Virus record (IMG/VR): IMGVR_UViG_3300036858_000014
Location: 1-50,445 of that record
Source: a virus
Taxonomy: Duplodnaviria > Caudoviricetes
Length of the DNA: 50,445 nt
Direction: 5' to 3' (one strand)
Part shown: in pieces, positions 14,478 through 47,715 of the stretch
How the letters are laid out: each line of letters starts with the position of its first letter
Numbering within the stretch: position 1 is the stretch's first letter
The notes under the pieces: model-generated
The model's input: the letters and a program-made list of their open reading frames with translations, nothing else
What the model was told of the DNA's origin: nothing
Databases searched by the model: none
Made by a program: the position numbers and the translations under genes

Positions 14478-15803
14478 TTAATACCGTAGATGCCATGTGA
14501 GATAACGCAATGCATCGAGGCAGTGGTCATCTACTTTAAGCGGTTTAGGTTCACCAATAGAGGCTTGCGTACCGGGATTGTAACGATAGCTTTGAAATTC
14601 ACGTATCAGGTTAACGCAACGCGGATGGATTTTAAGCTGTCTTACACCGTTGCCATCGCATACCAAACGACGTAGGTTTTTGATGCCTTCAGATACGGTA
14701 TGCGTTGCACCCGTCGCATTTAACCCCATTGACCATAGCCGTGCTTTTAATTCCGCCGCGCTGCTATCCACATAAGCGAGGGTTGGGTGCTGATACGGAA
14801 GCGCCATTACGTTTTGCACGCTGGCATCGGTGAGTTCGTTTGTAACCACGTATTCATAGAACACATTAACACCGCCCGTTGGGGTAATATTTGCCAACAA
14901 AAATACGCGCGGGTGATAACTCTCTGTACCAACGCCCTGTCCTGCGCTATACCCATCGTCAACACCCCACTCTATAGGCCAGTCGGGATTATATTCCGCG
15001 TCGGCAGTGACGTTATGCTCAACACTGAAGTTGTCATAAATCACGCCTTCCGCTTGCACCCAACGGCCTAACACAAGACGCTCATATTGCATCCCGGTTA
15101 ACCGTTCAAGGTTTGCAAGGTATTCGGGCGGGTTATGCGGGTTGTCTTTCGCGCTACTGTAGTAAACCGATGCTTCCCTGCCGATGATCAAACGCTGGTT
15201 AATCCAGTGCAAGGGGCTATCAGGATTTGTCATGAGAATGATTTGCCGATATTCGCCCACAGGGGAGCGCATACGGGCAATAATTTCGTTATAGTCTTGC
15301 TCGGTGAACGCGGTCGCTTCCTCAAACAGACAGATGCTTAACCCGCCATCCCCGCCGATAGACCGCACGCTTTCGCGCTGATCATCGTCATTCATCCCAC
15401 CCCAATACAGCGTACCCCCGTTGGCATACGCAAACTGGCGGTCAGATTTCTTCTTTTCGGCGATTGCGGTGTTACGCTTCATCACCGACTGCCACATAAA
15501 CGGGACAATCGACTTGCCCGCCCATTCCTGCGCTTTACGCATCATAAGACCCGTTGCGCCGGGGTAGCGTTGCATATAGCGGTTGACCAGTTCCAAGCCA
15601 AGGCGCGACTTACCGCCCCCTGCCGACCCTGTTAGCAGAATAACAGGCGAACGATCCTCAAGCGCGGGTAGCTGCCACGCGAGAGGGGTATAACCGTCAT
15701 TCGGTACTGTTGGTATTGCCGTTAAGTTGGTGCTGATGTGTTGCACCAACGAGTCGAACAAAGTCAGCTTGGATTGCGCTAAGTGCGCTGCTGTCTGATA
15801 CAT
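14478..15803 (-). CDS. terL: Terminase large subunit (PBSX/SPP1-like)
   Basis: Walker A GSAGGGKS, Walker B LFEEA, MTNP, DNPH, GVDDGY, DHCLDALRY. Start uncertain. Confidence 0.93.
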   Translation of the reverse strand: MYQTAAHLAQSKLTLFDSLVQHISTNLTAIPTVPNDGYTPLAWQLPALEDRSPVILLTGSAGGGKSRLGLELVNRYMQRYPGATGLMMRKAQEWAGKSIVPFMWQSVMKRNTAIAEKKKSDRQFAYANGGTLYWGGMNDDDQRESVRSIGGDGGLSICLFEEATAFTEQDYNEIIARMRSPVGEYRQIILMTNPDSPLHWINQRLIIGREASVYYSSAKDNPHNPPEYLANLERLTGMQYERLVLGRWVQAEGVIYDNFSVEHNVTADAEYNPDWPIEWGVDDGYSAGQGVGTESYHPRVFLLANITPTGGVNVFYEYVVTNELTDASVQNVMALPYQHPTLAYVDSSAAELKARLWSMGLNATGATHTVSEGIKNLRRLVCDGNGVRQLKIHPRCVNLIREFQSYRYNPGTQASIGEPKPLKVDDHCLDALRYLTWHLRY

Positions 15804-22813: not shown

Positions 22814-23212
22814 TTATTCATCCCCTCGTGCTTGGCGTTGACGTTCGATAAACGACTTAGCAAAGCTGGCAGCAAACGGTGATACATCCCCACCGTCAAA
22901 CTCGTTATCATCAGGTGTGGAACTTTGAACCCTAAAACCGCCCTTACGAACCTCGCGCAAAAGGTCTTTAGCGAAATCCTCAAATAGCCCTTGAATAGCG
23001 TTCAAGGATATGCCGTTTAACTCGCGTGTGTACATTTCGGGCGTCTTGCCATTGGTTCGTAAAATTGCATCCTGCGCAATCGCCTTGAACGTAAACCCTT
23101 TTTCAATGAGACGGTCAATAGCTGCCAGCGTATCAATTTCCACTTGACCGCTGGCAGGATTGAGGCGCATTGTAAAATAACGCGCCTCACTTGTCTTTTC
23201 ACGTTTTGCCAT
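22814..23212 (-). CDS. Putative ParR-like adaptor
   Basis: Small gene translationally coupled (TAATG) to the actin-like gene; basic N-terminus, acidic flexible C-terminal region. Confidence 0.55.
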   Translation of the reverse strand: MAKREKTSEARYFTMRLNPASGQVEIDTLAAIDRLIEKGFTFKAIAQDAILRTNGKTPEMYTRELNGISLNAIQGLFEDFAKDLLREVRKGGFRVQSSTPDDNEFDGGDVSPFAASFAKSFIERQRQARGDE

Positions 23213-24243
23213 TACCACGCCCCTACCAAGCGCATAAGCGCTCCGACCTTTGCAAGCCCAAACACGTTAGCGAATTTCATCAAATCGCGGTTCTGTTCTG
23301 CGAAGATGAAATCAATACGCGGGTAGGATTGCACCAGCGCGTCATGAATCAGCGCCGCGCCGCCGCCCGTAAGCAGGATGTTGTCGAAGTTTGCCGCGCC
23401 GCCCGCTTCTTCGATGATCTGAATCACATCGTTGACCAGCGCTTGCATCACCGCGCCCGCTTCTTCTTGGCAGTCAATGGTGATGTTACCGAATTTGTAG
23501 CGCCCATTGAGAATAGCATCCTCAACACGGCGAATATCCAAATCGCCAGCATCACGAAATAACGTCCGGTTGTTTGCCCGCAACATGCTTTCAAAATCGT
23601 TGGTCATGTTGATAACGCCCGCGCGGGTAGACTTCAAACTGAGGGTGTCGATATTGCCGCCGGGGTCAACTGCTGCCACGTCCGTTGTATGTCCGCCGCA
23701 GTCAAGAACTAACGTTGTCACGTCGCGCAACGGATTCTTTTTGCGTTCCTCCCCACGTTCCGTCAAAGTGTAGTGTGAATAGCCCGCAATCGGTTCATCG
23801 GCTGTCATCACCTCGCGCACCTGATAGGTAAATTCGCCGTTGCGCGTTTCCACCTGCCAGATACCCTTTGCAGATAACACAATATCCCGCGCGTATTCCA
23901 CATCACCGGGGGCGTGTGAAGCAAACAAAGTGATGTTGCCCATATCCCGCGAAAACGTTTCACTGAGGGCGCAGGCAAGGGCAAACCCGTAATACTGCTG
24001 CGTGTATCGCGCCGCGCCGCGTGGTTTTTCTTTGAGCGTATAACGCCGCGCAGCATCACCAAATGCTAACGGTTGCCCATTCACGCGCAAGATACCGCTA
24101 GGCGGCTTGCCATTGCCACAAGCCCGCCGCCAGTCCGCTTCACTCAGCATCGCCAGCGCATGTCGCGCATCTGCATACTTGTGCTGTTTTGGAAAAAACC
24201 ACTTCCAACGGGCATTCCCAAAGTCTAAAACAAAATCAACCAT
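23212..24243 (-). CDS. parM: ParM/StbA-family actin-like ATPase
   Basis: LDFGN (phosphate 1), EPIAG, VLDCGGHTTDV (phosphate 2), LLTGGGA (adenosine). AAAGGA RBS places the start at 24243. Confidence 0.88.
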   Translation of the reverse strand: MVDFVLDFGNARWKWFFPKQHKYADARHALAMLSEADWRRACGNGKPPSGILRVNGQPLAFGDAARRYTLKEKPRGAARYTQQYYGFALACALSETFSRDMGNITLFASHAPGDVEYARDIVLSAKGIWQVETRNGEFTYQVREVMTADEPIAGYSHYTLTERGEERKKNPLRDVTTLVLDCGGHTTDVAAVDPGGNIDTLSLKSTRAGVINMTNDFESMLRANNRTLFRDAGDLDIRRVEDAILNGRYKFGNITIDCQEEAGAVMQALVNDVIQIIEEAGGAANFDNILLTGGGAALIHDALVQSYPRIDFIFAEQNRDLMKFANVFGLAKVGALMRLVGAW

Positions 24244-24260
24244 ATATGTCCTTTCGATTA

Positions 24261-24328
24261 TACGTTTATGGGTCATAAACTACGTTTACGCCCGTTTATA
24301 TTATCGGTCAATATGGCTGATTTGTCAA
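24261..24328 (-). promoter_or_regulatory. par operon promoter with parC-like repeats
   Basis: TTGACA-N17-GATAAT (24328-24300); CGTTTA at 24263, 24283, 24293 and an inverted TAAAC at 24276. Confidence 0.6.
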
Positions 24329-32086: not shown

Positions 32087-32782
32087 TTAAAGTGGTATGT
32101 CCTGCTGAATATCAGTGACGTTTAGATAACCTTTTGCATCCGGCGCGGCGCTTACCCATGCGGGCGGGTCTAGTGCGTACTCCCCCGGCTTTGCCCATGC
32201 GTCAACGTTGTAACCAGCTTTGCGAAGGCGGTCACGGCTAAAGTCGGTAATGAAGCTGCTAGGGTTTTTAGTATCTTCAAAGATCAGATAAGGCTTCTTT
32301 TGGGCGTTCAAGCGGACTGTCAATTTTGTGCAAACAAACCGCACATCATCGCCAGTAATCTCGCCCGTTGTCTTATCGACTTGCCGCGTTTGCTGCTGAG
32401 TCTGCCGTTGCGGTTTCTGCCCTTTGCCCAAGTCGAGTAGATAGCGTCCAATCCCGAATAGCCGCGCGGCGCGTTTCAAGGCGTCGGTAGCTGCCGACTT
32501 TTCAGCTTCATTTGCTTCGCTACCCGTCTTGGTAATCCGAACGCTTTCCATCCCAACGCCGTCGCGCCATACACCTTTCACGGTTAGGCGTCCGGATTGG
32601 ATTACAGAACCGTCGCGCCATACAGGTTGCCCTAGTAGTTCCCACGTCCAGCTAGGGTCTACCGCGTCGAGACGGTCTGTAATCGCCCGTTCACGAATGT
32701 AAGTACGCCCGTCGCGTTCTTCGTGGTCACTCGCATCAAACTGCGCTGTCAGCAGTTGCACATCTTCGTGAGTGAGTGTCAT
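32087..32782 (-). CDS. Rad52/Sak-like single-strand annealing recombinase
   Basis: YI..RAI.DRLD.V...W; RDGVG; EKSAATDALKRAARLFGIGRYL. Confidence 0.9.
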   Translation of the reverse strand: MTLTHEDVQLLTAQFDASDHEERDGRTYIRERAITDRLDAVDPSWTWELLGQPVWRDGSVIQSGRLTVKGVWRDGVGMESVRITKTGSEANEAEKSAATDALKRAARLFGIGRYLLDLGKGQKPQRQTQQQTRQVDKTTGEITGDDVRFVCTKLTVRLNAQKKPYLIFEDTKNPSSFITDFSRDRLRKAGYNVDAWAKPGEYALDPPAWVSAAPDAKGYLNVTDIQQDIPL

Positions 32783-34751: not shown

Positions 34752-35228
34752 ATGAGTGACAAACCGATTATCTACACCGAACCGGAAAACGAACGCGACA
34801 ACCCGCACAATGTACCGCTGGAGTCGTTAGATGAGATCATCTACGGCGGCAAGCCAGCGGCGCTAGGCGACGGTGATACGGCTATCTACGCATGGTTTGG
34901 CAACGGATGGAAAGGTGAAATTGTGTCAGCTGAGATGCATACGCCTGATGTAACCGTTGTCGGTTGCAAGCGTTGCCACGTCGAGGCGGCGGTAGCAGCG
35001 GGGCTGTGCGCGGGGTGCTGTGAGGCACGGTTAACAGAAGCACGATCTGTAATTGCCCCGTTCGGTTATGCATGGTATATGTGGACTACTGAACAGATGG
35101 ATAAATCACAAGGGTTTAGTAACTGGTTTCACAATGAATTTGCCGACGCCGAAAAGGTAGAGAAGTTGTTTCGGGATGCTGATGCTTTTATCTTGAGTAT
35201 CTCAGAATCACCACGCAAAACAGAATAA
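34752..35228 (+). CDS. Hypothetical protein
   Basis: AGGAG RBS; CxxC..CxxC. Confidence 0.6.
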   Translation: MSDKPIIYTEPENERDNPHNVPLESLDEIIYGGKPAALGDGDTAIYAWFGNGWKGEIVSAEMHTPDVTVVGCKRCHVEAAVAAGLCAGCCEARLTEARSVIAPFGYAWYMWTTEQMDKSQGFSNWFHNEFADAEKVEKLFRDADAFILSISESPRKTE

Positions 35229-35287
35229 CCCCCTCAATCAAAAACACCCCCGTAACAAGGGGTGTTCAGACTATATAAAGGTGAAAC

Positions 35288-35955: not shown

Positions 35956-36177
35956 TGAATGTATTCTCCTTACTAAAACGGGCTGCCTCTGCAACGGGCG
36001 GCTCGTTTGCATGTCTATACTTTTATAGTAGCGCAAGGTGGGGTAGAGAAGTAAAAGCAAATTGTGAATTTTTCGTGACGAAAGTAAATTAGCTACAAAT
36101 GTGCTATAATAGAGTCACCAAAAAGAAACCCCGCGCGGGGCAAACCGCCGGGGTGTGAGACACAAAGGAACGATCTA

Positions 36178-36765
36178 ATGTCTACAGATAGTATAACACT
36201 ACCCTCGTATTCAGACAACCTAGACCCTATGCAACGCCGCGAAATTGCCCGCGCTGAAATGGCGCAATTTGAGGGGCTAGGCAAATTCATGTATTTACTT
36301 CACAGTCCCTATGTTCGCAAGTTGCGCTTACCAGATAAGACAGTTGTGCATTCCGCAATTGACGTTATCGGCATCCTATCAGACTCAGAGAATGAGCCGC
36401 GCAAGCTGTGGAACGACACGAAAAAGCGCCTCCTAAAACAGGATGAAGATATGTCCGAAAAAATCGGACATATTGCTTTGCCGCTGTGGAACGACACGAA
36501 AAAGCGCCTCCGCCCTACGGATGTCATGACTTCAAGCGGACTAGTCATTCTGGTATTTGAACTCCACACGAAAACATCAAACAAGGTTAGGCATGGGATA
36601 GCAGGCGTGTTTGATCGTTACGCATCAGAACACCACGAAGCGATTCTGGCAGAACTTGAACGCACTACCGGATGGGCAGGGACGCGCATTCGATTGGAGA
36701 TGCAAGAGATTTACGAACCGGGGGATTATGACAATCCGGTACAGCCGCCGGGATGTCCTGAATAA
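36178..36765 (+). CDS. Bro-N domain (antirepressor-like) protein
   Basis: SAIDVIGILSDS..PRKLWND.K.RL...MSEKIGHI...R.TDV; TG-TATAAT promoter and AAAGGA RBS upstream. Confidence 0.7.
   Translation: MSTDSITLPSYSDNLDPMQRREIARAEMAQFEGLGKFMYLLHSPYVRKLRLPDKTVVHSAIDVIGILSDSENEPRKLWNDTKKRLLKQDEDMSEKIGHIALPLWNDTKKRLRPTDVMTSSGLVILVFELHTKTSNKVRHGIAGVFDRYASEHHEAILAELERTTGWAGTRIRLEMQEIYEPGDYDNPVQPPGCPE
36405..36511 (+). repeat. Perfect 29-bp direct repeats flanking a 25-bp palindrome
   Basis: GCTGTGGAACGACACGAAAAAGCGCCTCC at 36405 and 36483; ATATGTCCGA-AAAAA-TCGGACATAT at 36449-36473. Confidence 0.9.
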
Positions 36766-36838
36766 CTGGTTGTCGTTTGGTCAACCAGTCGAACTGTGTG
36801 AAATTGTCACACAGTTGTTTTGTTTAACAGAACAACTG
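36763..36838. repeat. Array of three short palindromic units
   Basis: TAACTG-N17-CAGTCG; GAACTG-N15-CAGTTG-N15-CAACTG; each N segment is partly self-complementary. Confidence 0.75.
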
Positions 36839-36844
36839 ACACAC

Positions 36845-36880
36845 AAAAAGAGCGTGGGCTTTTGCGGCCTGCGCTCTTTT
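36845..36880. terminator. Bidirectional terminator
   Basis: AAAAGAGCG...CGCTCTTTT stem between convergent genes. Confidence 0.7.
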
Positions 36881-36893
36881 GCGTTGCTAAGGG

Positions 36894-37142
36894 TTAGTAT
36901 TCAGGGTAAATTTTTCGGGCGCTGTTACCGTAAACCCGATACCCGTATTCCCGTTCATGGCATCCCGCTTCGTGGTTAAACACTGAATACCATACTACGC
37001 CGTCAGCTTTGCCAAAAGCTATCTCTAGCGCGGCGCGGGCTGCACGCGGGGTTAAGCGGTCAAATCCGTTTACGTTCACTTGTTGGCTAAATGTCCGGTA
37101 TTCAGGGCGCGTAACGGTTTTGGTAGCAGTGACTTGTATCAT
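36894..37142 (-). CDS. Hypothetical protein
   Basis: Own -10 (TATACT) and GAGAGAACGAG leader. Confidence 0.65.
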   Translation of the reverse strand: MIQVTATKTVTRPEYRTFSQQVNVNGFDRLTPRAARAALEIAFGKADGVVWYSVFNHEAGCHEREYGYRVYGNSARKIYPEY

Positions 37143-37460
37143 CTCGTTCTCTCTTTCTGTTTAACTATATAAACAGTATAGTTCATTTTTATGAACACTA
37201 CACCCCTAATAATTAGGGGTTAGCCCCTAAATAAAAGAGACGTGTTTTTGTCACGCCTCTTTCACATATACGATGTGCTATAAAATCCTACTGTCAGTAT
37301 GTCGGTTAGGAGACTAGCCGCGTTTTCCCCCGTTTATTCTGATCTATCCGATAGACTAACTATAACACCGGAATCAAAAGAGCGCCACTAGGACGCCCTT
37401 CTGACGGATATAGGAGACGCTTGGCGACTCACACGGGTGAACCCGTCATTTCATCCGATA

Positions 37461-38164: not shown

Positions 38165-39313
38165 TTACAATTCGGTTTCTGCGGTTTCATCAAGTCGATT
38201 CAAGATGTCGATTACATTTGCAACCCGGCGGTTAGCGGCGCTTAAGTCCGTCATGGCGTCGGCTATCATGGCGCGTATCTGCGCTTTTGTATCCGGCGTC
38301 GGCATCGGCTCATCGGGCGGTTCTGGCGGCGGCGGGGGATTAGGGTCACTCGCATACAGCATACGCGGGATAGCGGTATCTGCAATGTTGTAATTCACCC
38401 AGTCGGGATTTTGCCCATAACCGAAGATTAACGCCGCTTCCACGTCAAATAGTTGGTTCGCATCTACCCAAGCCATCTGTTTTACATAGGCTGTGTTTCT
38501 ATCCCATTGAGGCCACCAGTCCTTCCACTGCGGTTCAAGCGTTTTAAAACCGTTGACACTACCGCCGTTATGCTTCAAGCTGTTGAGCCATACGCCTATG
38601 TCACTTGTGTAATCAAAACTGGTTTCGGTGTAGATAACGCGCGGGCGCTTGATGCCGTTACGATCACACCATGCGTATAAAAACCGATGCCGTCCAATGT
38701 GAAAACAGGTTGCTTTCTCAATCTCAGCACGGGTAGGCCAGTTCTCAGGCGGGATTAGGTTTTTACCCTTCCCTTTCAATTCCGGTTTATTAGGGTCAAC
38801 ACCCGCGTTGTCAGGATACCCGCCGTAAGTTCCAGACGTAGCAGCGCCGCCCGCGTAAGCATGTAACCCCACGATAACGAACTGCGGAAAATCCGCCGCT
38901 AGTTTAAGCAAGTCTTTAGCGCGGTCAAAATCAGGGGTATCATATGTTCCGGTAGCAGGGTTTAGCACGATAACAGGCTGTTTATTCTCGATACCGTATC
39001 GCGCCAAGTCGTATTCCCATTGGATAATCTCAGCCCCTAAACCGCTTTCATTATGCCCGTGAACAATACAGCCGTTATCTGAAATTGGCTTGCTAATCCG
39101 TAAGAAGTCTTTAGCCCCTACACGCTTATGCAGTTCACCATCAGGCCATTGTCTAACAATTACCGTCATGTTTGGAAATGCACGTTTACAGGCGTAGGCA
39201 GTTGGGGCGCGGTCGCCATAGAATAGAATGGCGGGGGATTTCATAGCAGCAACGTGGTTAAACAGCACGTTTTCATCGTCGGGGTTTAGGACGTTTAAAC
39301 CTAGTTTGGTCAT
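38165..39313 (-). CDS. Glycoside hydrolase-like (clan GH-A TIM barrel) lysin candidate
   Basis: KLGLNV, VIVRQW.D, HNE, GLHAY, VIYTE, AALIF; Pro linker and helical C-terminus. Confidence 0.55.
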   Translation of the reverse strand: MTKLGLNVLNPDDENVLFNHVAAMKSPAILFYGDRAPTAYACKRAFPNMTVIVRQWPDGELHKRVGAKDFLRISKPISDNGCIVHGHNESGLGAEIIQWEYDLARYGIENKQPVIVLNPATGTYDTPDFDRAKDLLKLAADFPQFVIVGLHAYAGGAATSGTYGGYPDNAGVDPNKPELKGKGKNLIPPENWPTRAEIEKATCFHIGRHRFLYAWCDRNGIKRPRVIYTETSFDYTSDIGVWLNSLKHNGGSVNGFKTLEPQWKDWWPQWDRNTAYVKQMAWVDANQLFDVEAALIFGYGQNPDWVNYNIADTAIPRMLYASDPNPPPPPEPPDEPMPTPDTKAQIRAMIADAMTDLSAANRRVANVIDILNRLDETAETEL

Positions 39314-43421: not shown

Positions 43422-45154
43422 ACGTCACGCAGCCCTGACCAACGCGGGATAATATTCACGCGCACCGTATATGTGAAATCAGGGCGTGAACGGTAGTTAT
43501 CTGCGGGGTCTTCCATGCCTACAAAATAGAGACGGTTGTTGACTTGTGGTAATAGGGTTACAGGTGAGCCTTGCGTGTTTGTTGGATAGGGTGCGCTGTC
43601 GTAAGCGGTTGCACCATCCTTATCCACTAGATAACAAGCATACTGCGGACGCCCGCGCGAAAGATAACCAGTCGTGTCGCTAATGATGTCAGAATTGCCT
43701 AACCCGCTATCATTGGTCGCAATAAAACATACCTCGTCTTTGGGAATGAGAATAAGGTCAAGCACATCCAAGGTTGCAACACCACTAGCACGGGATGCTC
43801 TTAAGGCAATAGCGATAGATTGTACTGTATTATCAACATCAATCCCGTACCCTTCCATTCCTACCGTAGTACGGTCATCTGATAGCGGGATAGACAGAAT
43901 GCCCATATAGCTTAAGTACCAGTCGGTAGCGGCTCCTGCGGATACTGTTGGATTAGTCGATTGAAGTCTGATAGTTTGGCGAACAGCAGCATAACTTACC
44001 TCTAAATACATGGAAATATTACCAAACGCCCCTGCATTTTGACGCCCTCGAATAAACGCGACATATTCGCCGCGTAAAATATGGATGTCAGCAGCGTAGT
44101 AATCACCAGCAAAATTTAACCGTATCTGATCAGTAGCGGTGGCGAAAGATGTACGGCTAAAATAGCGTGTACCTAATGTGTTATTCGATAAGTTTCCCGC
44201 CCCGCTGGTAGCGCTGGTTTGTCGCGTGGTATCTGTCCCCATACCCGCATCACCCGCATTAAATTGCGCTATTGGGATACGAAATGACTGCTGCAAGTCA
44301 GCGCGACCAGAACCCGCATTAGCGCGGTTGACTACTGTTGTTGGCTTGGTAGATCGTCCGCACATCAGAATGTATGGCGCGTTATCACCCGTTAAATCCA
44401 CAAAAGCCAATGCGGGCGCGTCACCGGGGATTAGATTTGCTGGAATGTCAACATAGTTATTTGTTACCGTAACATTCAATGTTGTCGGATTTAATTCGGT
44501 ACGATTGTTCAGTGTCTTTTGCACCAGTGCATCCGAGCCGCGCCCCAAGTCCGCAACGTTGACATTAAAATTCCGCATGTTTCCGTCGCGCGTGTAATAT
44601 GACCACTTCTTAGGGTTATCACCCGGCGCAAGCCCGCGCCAATACGCCTCGCGTTCAATCGTCATGGTAATGTCGCGCACAGGTTGCGCAAGATCGTCAG
44701 GGTCATCTACTGCATACTCAATCGTGCGAATAAGAGCGTAGCGCGGCCCCGGCTCACCAACGATTTGGTGCTTCAGATAGACGGGCTGAATCTGGTTAAA
44801 GTCAATATAGAAGGCACTGGCTTGGGCTACAAACCAGTCTAATTGTCGCATCAGATTGTTTAAGGTCAGGAACGACCCCGGTGCAATTGTCAAGCGCAGT
44901 GTTTCGGTTACGTCTGTATCACTAACCACAATTGGATAACGCCCCGGTACGAGTGAGCTGTCCAACCACGCGCCGCCGTTTTTGATGCTTGGGCGTTGCG
45001 GGCTAAAACCACCCTCTGCTAGTACGCAAAATCCGGCTGGGTCTGCCAAGTCAAGCACAATAACGCCTAGCTCTGCACTGGCAGTATCACCGGGCGTCTT
45101 TTCAACTCCCCATATGATCTTAAGTTCGTAGTGGTCGCCAACTGGTGTAGGCAT
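43418..45154 (-). CDS. Distal tail (Dit-like) protein with inserted domain
   Basis: Follows tape measure; EREAYWRG, GDAPA, L.P..NNRL..V.IIPRW. Confidence 0.6.
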   Translation of the reverse strand: MPTPVGDHYELKIIWGVEKTPGDTASAELGVIVLDLADPAGFCVLAEGGFSPQRPSIKNGGAWLDSSLVPGRYPIVVSDTDVTETLRLTIAPGSFLTLNNLMRQLDWFVAQASAFYIDFNQIQPVYLKHQIVGEPGPRYALIRTIEYAVDDPDDLAQPVRDITMTIEREAYWRGLAPGDNPKKWSYYTRDGNMRNFNVNVADLGRGSDALVQKTLNNRTELNPTTLNVTVTNNYVDIPANLIPGDAPALAFVDLTGDNAPYILMCGRSTKPTTVVNRANAGSGRADLQQSFRIPIAQFNAGDAGMGTDTTRQTSATSGAGNLSNNTLGTRYFSRTSFATATDQIRLNFAGDYYAADIHILRGEYVAFIRGRQNAGAFGNISMYLEVSYAAVRQTIRLQSTNPTVSAGAATDWYLSYMGILSIPLSDDRTTVGMEGYGIDVDNTVQSIAIALRASRASGVATLDVLDLILIPKDEVCFIATNDSGLGNSDIISDTTGYLSRGRPQYACYLVDKDGATAYDSAPYPTNTQGSPVTLLPQVNNRLYFVGMEDPADNYRSRPDFTYTVRVNIIPRWSGLRDV

Positions 45155-47715
45155 TAACCAATCCCCCTTACAGCGCGACTAATCGCATTTGCGGCGCTCA
45201 TGCCTTGCGCCCCGTTACTAATGTTTTGCATGATGTTGAGCATATAGTTGTTCGTTGTCATTGGGCTAGGGCTTGCACCCCCTCCCATCATTGTATCTGG
45301 TAATGGGGCGGTTGCGCCACTCCCCCCGAACGCGGTAGTCGTTCCCGCCGCGCCTGTGTTGATTGCAGCGAACGCCCCGGTTGCTTGCCCTTGAAACGTG
45401 GTGCTTGCTAGCCCTGCATTTGTAAACGCGGTTTCGAGGGTTTCAAGCCATGTAATGACAAACGGGAAATTTTCATCAGCACTAGTTTTGACGAGGGAGA
45501 AATCATCAACGATGGTATTGCCGCTTACGACGGTTGTAATCGTGTCGCCTAGTCCTTCCATCGCATCGCCCGCGCTTTGTGCATTCAAGGATATACTGCT
45601 ATCCATGATATTCGCGCCCTGCTGCATTTGGGTAATCGCGGTAATGAAATCCTGATTACTCGCCATTGCTGCTAAAGCGGCGGCGCTTGCCGCGTCTTGC
45701 GCGTCAACGGTTGCGCCTGCAATAGCGCTTGACGCATCCGCTATTTGCTGTGCTGTAACCAGTTGGGTCGATAGATCATCACCCGCTGCGCTGGCTTGGG
45801 CGCTGCCTGCTACCGTACCGCCTATCGCGGTCGATAGATCATCCTCAGCAGCACGAGACACACTGGCAGCGGCAAGCGTTACAGCGGTATCGATTTGCTG
45901 TTGTAAGGCTTCGGTGTTAATCCCCAACTCAACAGGGACTTCAACCTGTGCTGCTAGCGCAGGATTGATTGCAGTAGCAACACCGCCCAAGAATCCCAAA
46001 CTGTCAGCACCGCTTACGGTTGTTGTCGCTTGCCCTGCCCCGCTAACGATGTTCTGTGCTTGTGCTGTGTTACCCGCGTCAATAGCGCTGTTAACGGCAG
46101 TACTTGCAATTTGTCCAATGGTTTCAGGGTCAACACCCCGCGCCATTGCTTGGCTAATCAGGTCGGTTACTTCGTCAGCGTTGGCAACCTGCAAATCAAA
46201 CTCAAGCTGCTGCGCTCCTAGTCGCGCGATTTCTGCACGGGTAGAGGTTGCATCTTTGCCAAGTAATTCCTGTAAGCCCGCAATGACTTCTAGAAATTGA
46301 ATGATAAAATTACCAAATACACCTTCCAGCTTCGTGAACTCATCATCAAAACCAAGCGGTTCAAGTCCTATTTTAATGGCTTCACTTAACGTAGACCCGG
46401 CCTGAATTTCGTCAACGGTTGTTTGTACGGCAGTTTTAATCGCTTCCAGTTTGCCATCCAAATCAATCGCATCTGATGACAGCAGATTACCCGCTTCAAC
46501 GTTAATGGTATTGAATAGTTCGGTAAACGCTACGCCTAAGTTATCGTTTAGAAACGTGGAGATTTCAGCTGCACGGCCTTCAATCTGGTCAAATGTAATA
46601 GCCGTTGGGTCAAGCCCAAACACACTACCCATGAAATCTTCGGTTTGTGTACCGAAGATATTCGCTAATGCGGCCTGCTGTTCGCCCGCTTGGGTCTGGT
46701 CATTCATCCCCTGAATAGCGCTAATGACGCCATTAAAGAACTCAACGCCCGTCAGTTCACCCGCTTGGAATGCCGCCGCCTCATCTGCTAACCCTAAGTT
46801 AGCAAGACTCTCTTGCGCGGCGGTTTCTTCAGGGTTGCTAACACGGATTTGGAACTCACGGAATAGATCGGCTACCCTGTCGGTGTTATCAAAACCCGCT
46901 TCTAGACCACTGTTGAATAGGCTTAAGACTTCATCAGCCGTTGCACCGAAGTTTGAAAATGTAGAACTGTATTCAATGAGCGAGTCTAGAAAATCGTCGC
47001 GTCTGTTTGCCCCGCCCACTACACCCGCCGCGATGATGTCACTGGCCTCAGTTGCATTTTCTGCCAACCCATTTAAGACCAGTGCGTTTTGTGCAACGGC
47101 GATTTGGGCAAGGTCGGCATCTTGACCCATTGCTGTGAACGCATCCCGCGCGGCTAACGCACCATAAGCTGCATTGTTCAGTTCATCGGCTTCAACACCA
47201 ATAGACTTGAGTTGATTGATGAATACCGCCGCTTCCTCAGTGCTCTCAAAGAATGCGTCAGTAAACAACTGCTGTGCAAGTGCTAAATCTTCAGGGTTAA
47301 ACTCACCCGTTGGGATACTCAGTAACCCCTCGGCGCGTTGGTTGCCTAACACCTGTCCTACACCGGGAAGGTTAGCCAGTGTGTCAATGATACCCGTTAG
47401 ATTCGCAGGAACGTTTAGCGCAAGATTAATAACCGATAGATTGCGAATTTGTTCAAGTAAATCCTGTACCTCTTGCACTTCGGTATCATCAGCGTTGACC
47501 TTAACCTCAGGCGTTTCGCTGCCTAAGTCGTCAATGGCACGCGCGGCGCTGGCAATTTCGCCATTGTCAACGTTAACCTTAACGTCAACCGTACCGCCTA
47601 AATCGTCAAGCGCCTTGTCCATCCGGTTTGCATCGGCAATCACCGAATCATAGGCGCTATCCCATTTGCTGGTATCTAAGACAACTTCCGCGCCCGCTTG
47701 TGGTAATTTCGCCAT
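45154..47715 (-). CDS. Tape measure protein
   Basis: 853 aa, Ala-rich and helical; DDFLDSLIEYS..F...G...GFDNTDRVAD.FREF.IR (PhageMin_Tail-like). Confidence 0.88.
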   Translation of the reverse strand: MAKLPQAGAEVVLDTSKWDSAYDSVIADANRMDKALDDLGGTVDVKVNVDNGEIASAARAIDDLGSETPEVKVNADDTEVQEVQDLLEQIRNLSVINLALNVPANLTGIIDTLANLPGVGQVLGNQRAEGLLSIPTGEFNPEDLALAQQLFTDAFFESTEEAAVFINQLKSIGVEADELNNAAYGALAARDAFTAMGQDADLAQIAVAQNALVLNGLAENATEASDIIAAGVVGGANRRDDFLDSLIEYSSTFSNFGATADEVLSLFNSGLEAGFDNTDRVADLFREFQIRVSNPEETAAQESLANLGLADEAAAFQAGELTGVEFFNGVISAIQGMNDQTQAGEQQAALANIFGTQTEDFMGSVFGLDPTAITFDQIEGRAAEISTFLNDNLGVAFTELFNTINVEAGNLLSSDAIDLDGKLEAIKTAVQTTVDEIQAGSTLSEAIKIGLEPLGFDDEFTKLEGVFGNFIIQFLEVIAGLQELLGKDATSTRAEIARLGAQQLEFDLQVANADEVTDLISQAMARGVDPETIGQIASTAVNSAIDAGNTAQAQNIVSGAGQATTTVSGADSLGFLGGVATAINPALAAQVEVPVELGINTEALQQQIDTAVTLAAASVSRAAEDDLSTAIGGTVAGSAQASAAGDDLSTQLVTAQQIADASSAIAGATVDAQDAASAAALAAMASNQDFITAITQMQQGANIMDSSISLNAQSAGDAMEGLGDTITTVVSGNTIVDDFSLVKTSADENFPFVITWLETLETAFTNAGLASTTFQGQATGAFAAINTGAAGTTTAFGGSGATAPLPDTMMGGGASPSPMTTNNYMLNIMQNISNGAQGMSAANAISRAVRGIG

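Follow-up and report, generated by a model that had tools for sequence, protein, structure and literature searches.

Sequence evidence for a nucleotide-level palindrome kept at nine codons across a large Bro-N subfamily

Alignments and back-translations show that a large subfamily of Bro-N genes, in phages, plasmids and chromosomes, keeps a nucleotide-level palindrome at nine codons. By the same comparisons, what is conserved is the complementarity of one arm to the other and not the sequence, so that the residues at mirrored positions 2/8, 3/7 and 4/6 are passengers. We describe the palindrome from the genome of a tailed phage (the window, i.e. the whole 50,445-nt stretch of DNA analysed), in which one copy lies within a divergent Bro-N-like gene and three units of the same geometry follow directly behind it. 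The explanation that we favour, and hold tentatively, is that the palindrome is a selected, symmetric cis-site acting at the level of DNA, kept by template switching and probably bound by the symmetric dimer predicted for the protein. To our knowledge, the targets of Bro-N proteins are largely unknown, and the palindrome, if functional, is a concrete candidate binding site for them. More broadly, a widespread DNA-binding domain is being moulded by a constraint on nucleic acid.

Setting of the phage gene and identity of its product

The IMG/VR record represents a complete virus: it spans 50,445 bp, is bounded by direct terminal repeats and has a G+C content of 50.6%. A Pfam scan of its ORFs marks it as a tailed phage, with genes for a large terminase (14478–15803) and a tape-measure-like protein (45154–47715), and also reveals a Rad52-like protein gene (32087–32782) and several glycosyltransferases. 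On the minus strand lies a ParM/actin-like ATPase gene (23212–24276) with matches to Pfam MreB-like_C and ParM_N, of which one falls short of the cut-off. Given the terminal repeats of the phage, the gene is a hint of maintenance in the manner of a plasmid, or of a cytoskeleton within the cell. A search of sequencing runs found the phage DNA in two soil-metagenome runs, both of DNA, and the record may itself derive from one of them; no RNA run with the stretch was among the matches.

The bro gene (36178–36765, +) encodes 195 aa and ends the phage's only long plus-strand block of small genes. It converges with an 82-aa gene (36894–37142, −) of unassigned function, which has no family match in Pfam or PHROGs. 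An extended −10-like motif, putatively a promoter, lies 5′ of bro (36100–36110, +). Its 10-mer has three exact copies in the genome (36100–36109, +; 37274–37283, +; 39343–39352, −) and may be the phage's own promoter motif; two of the copies sit upstream of genes, namely bro and a 382-aa gene (38165–39313). Together with the palindromic units and the predicted bidirectional terminator described below, the gene and this motif look like a self-contained promoter-to-terminator insert. On the minus strand, the region upstream of the 82-aa gene (37170–37265) is dense in further short inverted repeats, such as a 9-bp palindrome with a 1-nt spacer (37202–37220) and hairpins at 37234–37262.

In a second soil study (run X2), short contigs are 95–99% identical to the pieces 35222–35266 and 37371–37458 and then continue into unlike sequence. 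Because they match isolated pieces and then diverge, a mosaic relative exists elsewhere. A 205-nt contig of the second study spans 36441–36645 at ∼98.5% identity, with the in-gene palindrome unchanged. No related locus was found when the close-family alignment was scanned against viral, metagenome and genome contigs. Megablast and tblastn searches against phages likewise gave no related DNA of the close homologs, and the neighbouring gene used as query gave no related viral contig.

A Pfam scan of the 195-aa protein returned no Bro-N match at E values up to 1, and PF02498 has no match at the Pfam gathering score anywhere in the virus record. In PHROGs, the protein matches an unnamed family only. 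It has eight homologs of 43–73% identity. The AlphaFold (AF2) model (pLDDT 80.3) has Bro-N, 'repressor domain' and Ant proteins as its top BFVD matches, which are weak and consistent with one another (E ∼1e-3, probability 1.0, TM 0.3–0.4); a structure search of the PDB with the model gave no match at an E value of 0.001 or better, and sequence searches of the PDB for a solved relative were empty or spurious. The family profile matches 848 proteins, aligned to query residues ∼37–141. Among ten of these profile matches that were scanned, six lie above the PF02498 cut-off, one lies just below it and three are without Bro-N, and the plasmid relatives of the homolog P0022 are named 'BRO family' or 'Bro-N domain-containing' by PGAP. 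On the strength of this homology, the protein is Bro-N-like, although the PF02498 test fails; the Bro-N label of the initial annotation is thus right by profile homology, with weaker links from the fold, while Pfam itself misses the protein. One profile match, the 4022-aa protein P0014 (26 stretches, E = 1.7e-44), was rejected as spurious, as it consists of ∼26 near-identical OB-fold repeats whose weak matches are summed. Profile searches would do well to filter out this false positive.

For the 195-aa protein, a symmetric homodimer is predicted with a score of 0.74, compared to 0.07 for the best control. Between prediction runs, at least 38% of contacts are shared, and pLDDT is at least 72. 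In calibration, 20 of 30 proteins with structures solved as one-chain pairs attained the mark set for this score, as did 1 of 23 whose solved structures are of single chains. The prediction supports the view that the protein dimerises.

Complementary arms within the coding sequence

Inside the coding sequence of the phage gene lies a perfect inverted repeat of 25 nt (36449–36473, +), with 10-bp arms and a 5-nt loop, which encodes residues 91–99 (DMSEKIGHI). It had been described as having a 15-nt self-complementary core; the palindrome is indeed perfect, but this core is really 5+5+5, with the middle five A's unpaired. The flanks of the unit (ATATG...CATAT, encoding D-M ... H-I) have diverged from those common in the family. 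The genome contains nine perfect hairpins of at least 9 bp, compared to a mean of 2.0 in 20 shuffles. It also has nine 10+5 units that pair at 9/10 or better, where ∼1.5 are expected by our own arithmetic from uniform base frequencies, and four of the nine lie within 36449–36837.

The in-gene palindrome is bracketed by a perfect direct repeat of 29 nt (36405–36433 and 36483–36511, both +; 100% identity), as a result of which the peptide LWNDTKKRL is encoded twice. Two similar peptide motifs are present in all homologs, and they are identical or co-varying only in the window, in P0007 and partly in P0002. Since the 29-nt repeat is perfect and the motifs are merely similar in most homologs, active intragenic copying or gene conversion is suggested. 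Direct repeats placed in this way around a palindrome are the classic arrangement of an in-frame deletion hotspot, here of 78 nt.

To describe the palindrome at the protein level, we asked whether the nine aligned codons of each relative could be back-translated, in fixed frame, into a ten-pair stem. All 24 of the closer relatives allow at least 9/10 pairs. In the wider set (159 aligned rows from 156 proteins), 148 of 159 do so and none falls below 8, whereas only 2.1% of random 9-aa windows reach at least 9/10. The residues at mirrored positions 3 and 7 are antisense-compatible, i.e. fully complementary, in 149 of 159 rows (mean of 2000 shuffles 59.5, maximum 79). They do so through 18 distinct pair types, including S-G, Y-V, V-H, H-V, S-R, V-N, A-S, T-S, W-P, C-A and M-H. 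The family consensus over the nine codons is [EQ]-L-x-E-x-I-x'-Q-L, and the initial annotation's statement that Bro-N homologs carry EL-x5-QL here, with a variable x5, proved accurate: [EQ]L stands at the start in 110 of 159 relatives and QL at the end in 120, with 59 distinct versions of x5 between them. The proposed check of the x5 codons in homologs came out as anticipated, these being palindromic as well as variable. The 'scaffold' residues also change as antisense pairs (M-H, F-K, L-E, T-R, P-R), which indicates that the palindrome shapes the peptide and not the reverse. As a control, we followed another in-gene palindrome of the phage (12658), one site only, located where the encoded protein is variable; it is not kept in distant homologs, which show 5–7 of 9 pairs or gaps.

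On several plasmids of one strain of Chondrinema litorale, a species of which eleven plasmid records have a match, BRO family genes directly follow parA/parB-like or rep-parA genes (loci with parA/parB or rep neighbours: L082 1327–3241 and L084 392–3280). The three paralogs examined, which come from separate plasmids of the strain, have three different cores, with 9, 8 and 9 of 10 pairs.

DNA sequences were compared at IMG/VR loci, which represent a distant P0022-like branch and not the close kin of the window. At 78 of 80 loci, the palindrome site is ungapped in the DNA. These 78 reduce to 42 distinct 27-mers, of which 23 pair at 10/10, 12 at 9/10 and 7 at 8/10. When the 42 distinct genes are aligned with that of the window (43 rows), 94.2% of stem cells pair, compared to 60.5% in shuffles (0 of 500 reach the observed value) and 19–32% for slid partners. 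One caveat here is that the sequences are related and not independent, and hence the shuffle statistics overstate the significance. Double-sided changes occur at nine of the ten stem pairs, in 163 cells, and only one cell in 430 is G-U. At the one purely synonymous pair, formed by the third base of the Glu codon and the first base of the Leu codon, we find A-U 29 times, G-C 13 times and U-A once, with none unpaired. Because both arms covary, synonymous positions included, the mirrored amino acids vary as antisense-codon pairs. RNAalifold, applied to 297 nt of the gene, returned the palindrome hairpin as the only covarying helix, and the repeat at 36449–36473 is homologous to this family-wide helix. 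The commonest flanks are of the AACTG...CAGTT or AGTTG...CAACT type, encoding E/Q-L ... Q-L, and are not universal in the family. Covariation is normally taken as proof of a functional RNA stem. In Bro-N, it occurs in a protein-coding domain, is confined to Watson-Crick pairs, and dictates which amino-acid pairs are permitted.

Palindromic units behind the phage gene

Three further units of 10+5 geometry lie directly downstream of the bro gene. Unit A (36765–36789; 9/10 pairs) begins inside the stop codon, unit B (36792–36816) is a perfect palindrome (10/10) with the commonest family flanks, and unit C (36813–36837; 9/10 pairs) has the second family flank type. The last can alternatively be described as having 13-nt arms with 1 nt between them and 92% complementarity, and it has one arm in common with B. 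All three are 9-codon units in one phase, A and B forming adjacent 27-nt blocks and C being offset by 21 nt. Although B and C are non-coding, their flanks are precisely of the two types common in the family, and in B the common inner GA/TC pair is found as well. Nowhere else in the genome do units have family flanks (only 36792 and 36813, directly after the gene). By our own estimate, which takes in the 5-nt flank, the inner GA/TC pair and the position after the gene, unit B would acquire such flanks by chance with a probability of ∼1e-3 or less, and we reject chance as their source. No two of A, B and C share a core, and none of them has that of the in-gene unit.

Several elements of this arrangement were present in the initial annotation. 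The 21-bp period holds between B and C, and the downstream units are of the same kind as the in-gene unit, with the same 10+5 geometry, differing cores and flanks common in the family. The 'third unit' upstream is also present, but is best placed at 36765–36789 as a 10+5 palindrome with 9/10 pairs (or as a 7-bp stem with a 9-nt loop), and it stands 27 nt before B. The reading EL-CEIVT-QL-FCLTE-QL is correct as a translation; it is probably never made as a peptide, since it lies after the TAA stop (36763–36765) and in a frame other than that of the gene.

Behind the units follows a GC-rich hairpin with an A-run and a T-run on either side (36846–36880), predicted to be a bidirectional intrinsic terminator between the convergent genes. 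A GC-containing stem followed by a T-run, the mark of an intrinsic terminator, is seen in this hairpin and in unit B, and the T-rich run after the ten pairs of B makes that unit terminator-like on the plus strand. RNA folded in silico over 36755–36890 (136 nt) is more stable than shuffled sequence on both strands (z = −6.5 on plus, −4.8 on minus). The whole window has no Rfam match at gathering score, and a tRNA scan of it was also empty. A motif common to the in-gene unit and unit B occurs at those two sites only, with 1.1 expected by chance, and CAACTG is mildly enriched in the window (37 versus 25); with a shared motif at just two sites and so mild an enrichment, there is no regulon-like set of sites.

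At 77 distinct Bro-N loci (241 kb), no family-type unit was found outside the gene, so the A–C array appears peculiar to this phage or its close kin. None of 21 flank-pattern matches in IMG/VR is a tandem array with two palindromic cores, and the expectation of similar arrays near other bro genes was not borne out at any of the 77 loci.

Competing explanations and likeness to known systems

Under the DNA-site explanation that we favour, the constraint would lie at the level of DNA or of both strands, as suggested by pairs that are nearly all Watson-Crick and by the near absence of G-U even where it would be synonymous. Intramolecular template switching would copy one arm from the other, so that the arms stay complementary under purifying selection. 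It would also be the natural source of double changes, and its one-step formation and upkeep of perfect stems is documented (Monttinen and Loytynoja 2022, PMC8794818). A symmetric dimer, for which the Bro-N protein itself is the simplest candidate, would bind the site and thereby bring about autoregulation or a transcriptional roadblock. By our own reckoning, the centres of the inner, variable half-sites are ∼10 bp or one helical turn apart and those of the outer flanks ∼20 bp, so that all would face one side of the helix; the predicted dimer fits a symmetric site of this geometry. Units A, B and C would be extra, extragenic copies of the same type of site and, with the GC-rich hairpin, may form the 3′ boundary of the gene unit, B being terminator-like too. 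In favour of selection, there are no decayed sites among the 159 proteins and 42 DNAs, and the family flanks are kept in non-coding B and C, whereas the control palindrome (one site) is not kept. Several points weigh against a cis-site. The family flanks are not universal, and with no family-type unit outside the gene at 77 other Bro-N loci, any role of the array would be particular to this phage or its close kin. The cores of A, B and C differ, which makes it less than obvious that all four units would be bound by a single sequence-specific protein; and template switching without selection could keep a quasi-palindrome perfect.

That last point is the heart of the main rival, a neutral account in which an antisense-compatible peptide (E-L ... 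Q-L) constitutes a permanent quasi-palindrome whose arms are copied by template switching to no function, and A–C are ordinary 3′-end hairpins that arose by inverted duplication. We consider it rather unlikely. It draws on the near-exclusive Watson-Crick pairing (1 G-U in 430) and on double changes lacking intermediates, both of which template switching predicts (PMC8794818), as well as on the perfect internal 29-nt repeat suggestive of copying within this very gene, the lack of family-type units outside genes at 77 other loci, and the imperfect stems of the three Chondrinema paralogs. A neutral process, however, should leave a tail of lost sites, and 0 of 159 relatives and 0 of 42 DNAs fall below 8/10; nor would it lead one to expect that scaffold residues themselves vary as antisense pairs, or that B and C retain family flanks when free of coding constraint. 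If neutral, the palindrome would be an unusually clean natural case of template switching keeping a palindrome over deep divergence, and a caution for covariation-based structure calls. Constraint on the RNA, as an mRNA hairpin affecting pausing or stability or serving as the target of a regulator or antisense RNA, with A–C as stabilising or terminating stem-loops of the 3′-UTR, seems to us improbable. The scarcity of G-U, extending to a synonymous Glu/Leu pair that is never G-U, is unusual for an RNA-only constraint, and no Rfam family matches. Covariation is nonetheless the classical signature of an RNA stem, all four downstream hairpins form in the predicted fold (z = −6.5), a T-rich run follows unit B, and the lack of G-U would equally be explained if sense and antisense RNAs must both fold.

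Two further proposals tie the variable core to the protein's function. Each symmetric dimer might recognise the palindrome in its own gene, and extragenic copies such as A–C as well; the stem would encode paired residues, and a single arm-to-arm template switch would alter site and protein together. The predicted symmetric dimer is consistent with this idea, as are a variable stem that encodes two to four residue pairs, the 59 distinct x5 segments, and the three cores of the Chondrinema paralogs beside parA/parB or rep genes. If true, the stem would be an inherent source of novel specificities, orthogonal to one another, that could serve immunity, incompatibility or partition. We give it little credence, because contact between the residues and the DNA is only conjectural and we know of no precedent for a direct residue-to-codon recognition rule. 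The initial annotation's alternative of target sites tied to the protein is also weakened by the three downstream cores, all unlike the in-gene core. Its other suggestion, that the downstream cores are stored cassettes swapped into the gene, has in its favour that A, B and C have the same geometry and phase, as 9-codon units in one frame, with family-type flanks. We regard it as highly implausible. The cores C..T and F..E match 0 of 27 pair types in the 159 proteins and 0 of 42 DNA alleles, and B and C have flanks of the AACTG/CAGTT type where the resident unit has ATATG/CATAT, leaving no shared homology for exchange. No reverse transcriptase, integrase, invertase or recombinase was found in the 34 ORFs scanned with Pfam, and no swapped cores, whether as joints or as variants, were seen in the two runs, both of them assembled contigs, which drop rare variants. 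The array is, moreover, unique among the IMG/VR matches.

Returning to the DNA-site explanation, several known systems offer partial likenesses. The parS site inside parB/spo0J is a palindromic binding site within the gene of a DNA-binding protein, and is conserved in sequence. The Bro-N palindrome resembles it as a symmetric site within coding sequence that is possibly bound by a dimer from the same locus, and some plasmid BRO genes adjoin parA/parB; it differs in conserving symmetry only and in being a putative site. Rickettsia palindromic elements are mobile repeats of 100–150 bp, found in frame in many unrelated protein genes. They too are palindromic DNA translated within protein, whereas the Bro-N palindrome is a single site of 25 nt with a fixed place in a single domain family. 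REP/BIME elements and stacked intrinsic terminators recall A–C as tandem hairpins between convergent genes, before a terminator. Unlike REP/BIME, A–C form a single cluster in the genome and not dispersed copies, their geometry and flanks are common to a coding palindrome, and the ORFs that were scanned include no RAYT-like gene. Template/variable repeats of DGRs, shufflons and pilin-type cassette conversion likewise involve a short variable segment in a binding protein with similar units nearby; at the Bro-N locus, in contrast, we found no RT or invertase among the scanned ORFs, and no homologous flanks, allele match or read evidence (contigs). The template-switch stems of PMC8794818 have the same one-step double changes, perfect arms and Watson-Crick pairs rather than G-U intermediates. 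Those stems lie in RNA genes, while the Bro-N stem lies in frame in a protein domain and drags amino-acid pairs with it family-wide. Conserved nucleic-acid elements in coding sequence, and stems kept by template switching, are therefore known. As far as we can tell, a DNA-level, family-wide instance that dictates amino-acid pairs in a DNA-binding domain is new, and literature searches (titles and abstract starts) found no published description of a palindrome inside Bro-N genes.

Palindromes with the class pattern also occur elsewhere in IMG/VR, 33 of 42 lying outside a Bro-N context; of these, 21 are one unrelated conserved element and 3 belong to a polymerase-like gene. A GC-rich provirus has, as an isolated element between its structural genes, an AT-rich 27-nt unit of exactly a common Bro type (L093 1423–1449), and no Bro-N relative is encoded within that 27.9-kb record. 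None of five such records with solitary family-type palindromes encodes a Bro-N relative, and the evidence is too thin to treat such palindromes as a mobile element. A palindrome conserved at 9/10 pairs and bearing the same outer flanks lies in a non-Bro context in ∼21 IMG/VR contigs, many of them of 4–14 kb, with stops in the matched frame (L087, L088, L092, L096–L099, L104, L107, L109, L113–L116, L118, L119, L123, L125, L126 and others). This palindrome may be a non-coding element belonging to a single group of viruses.
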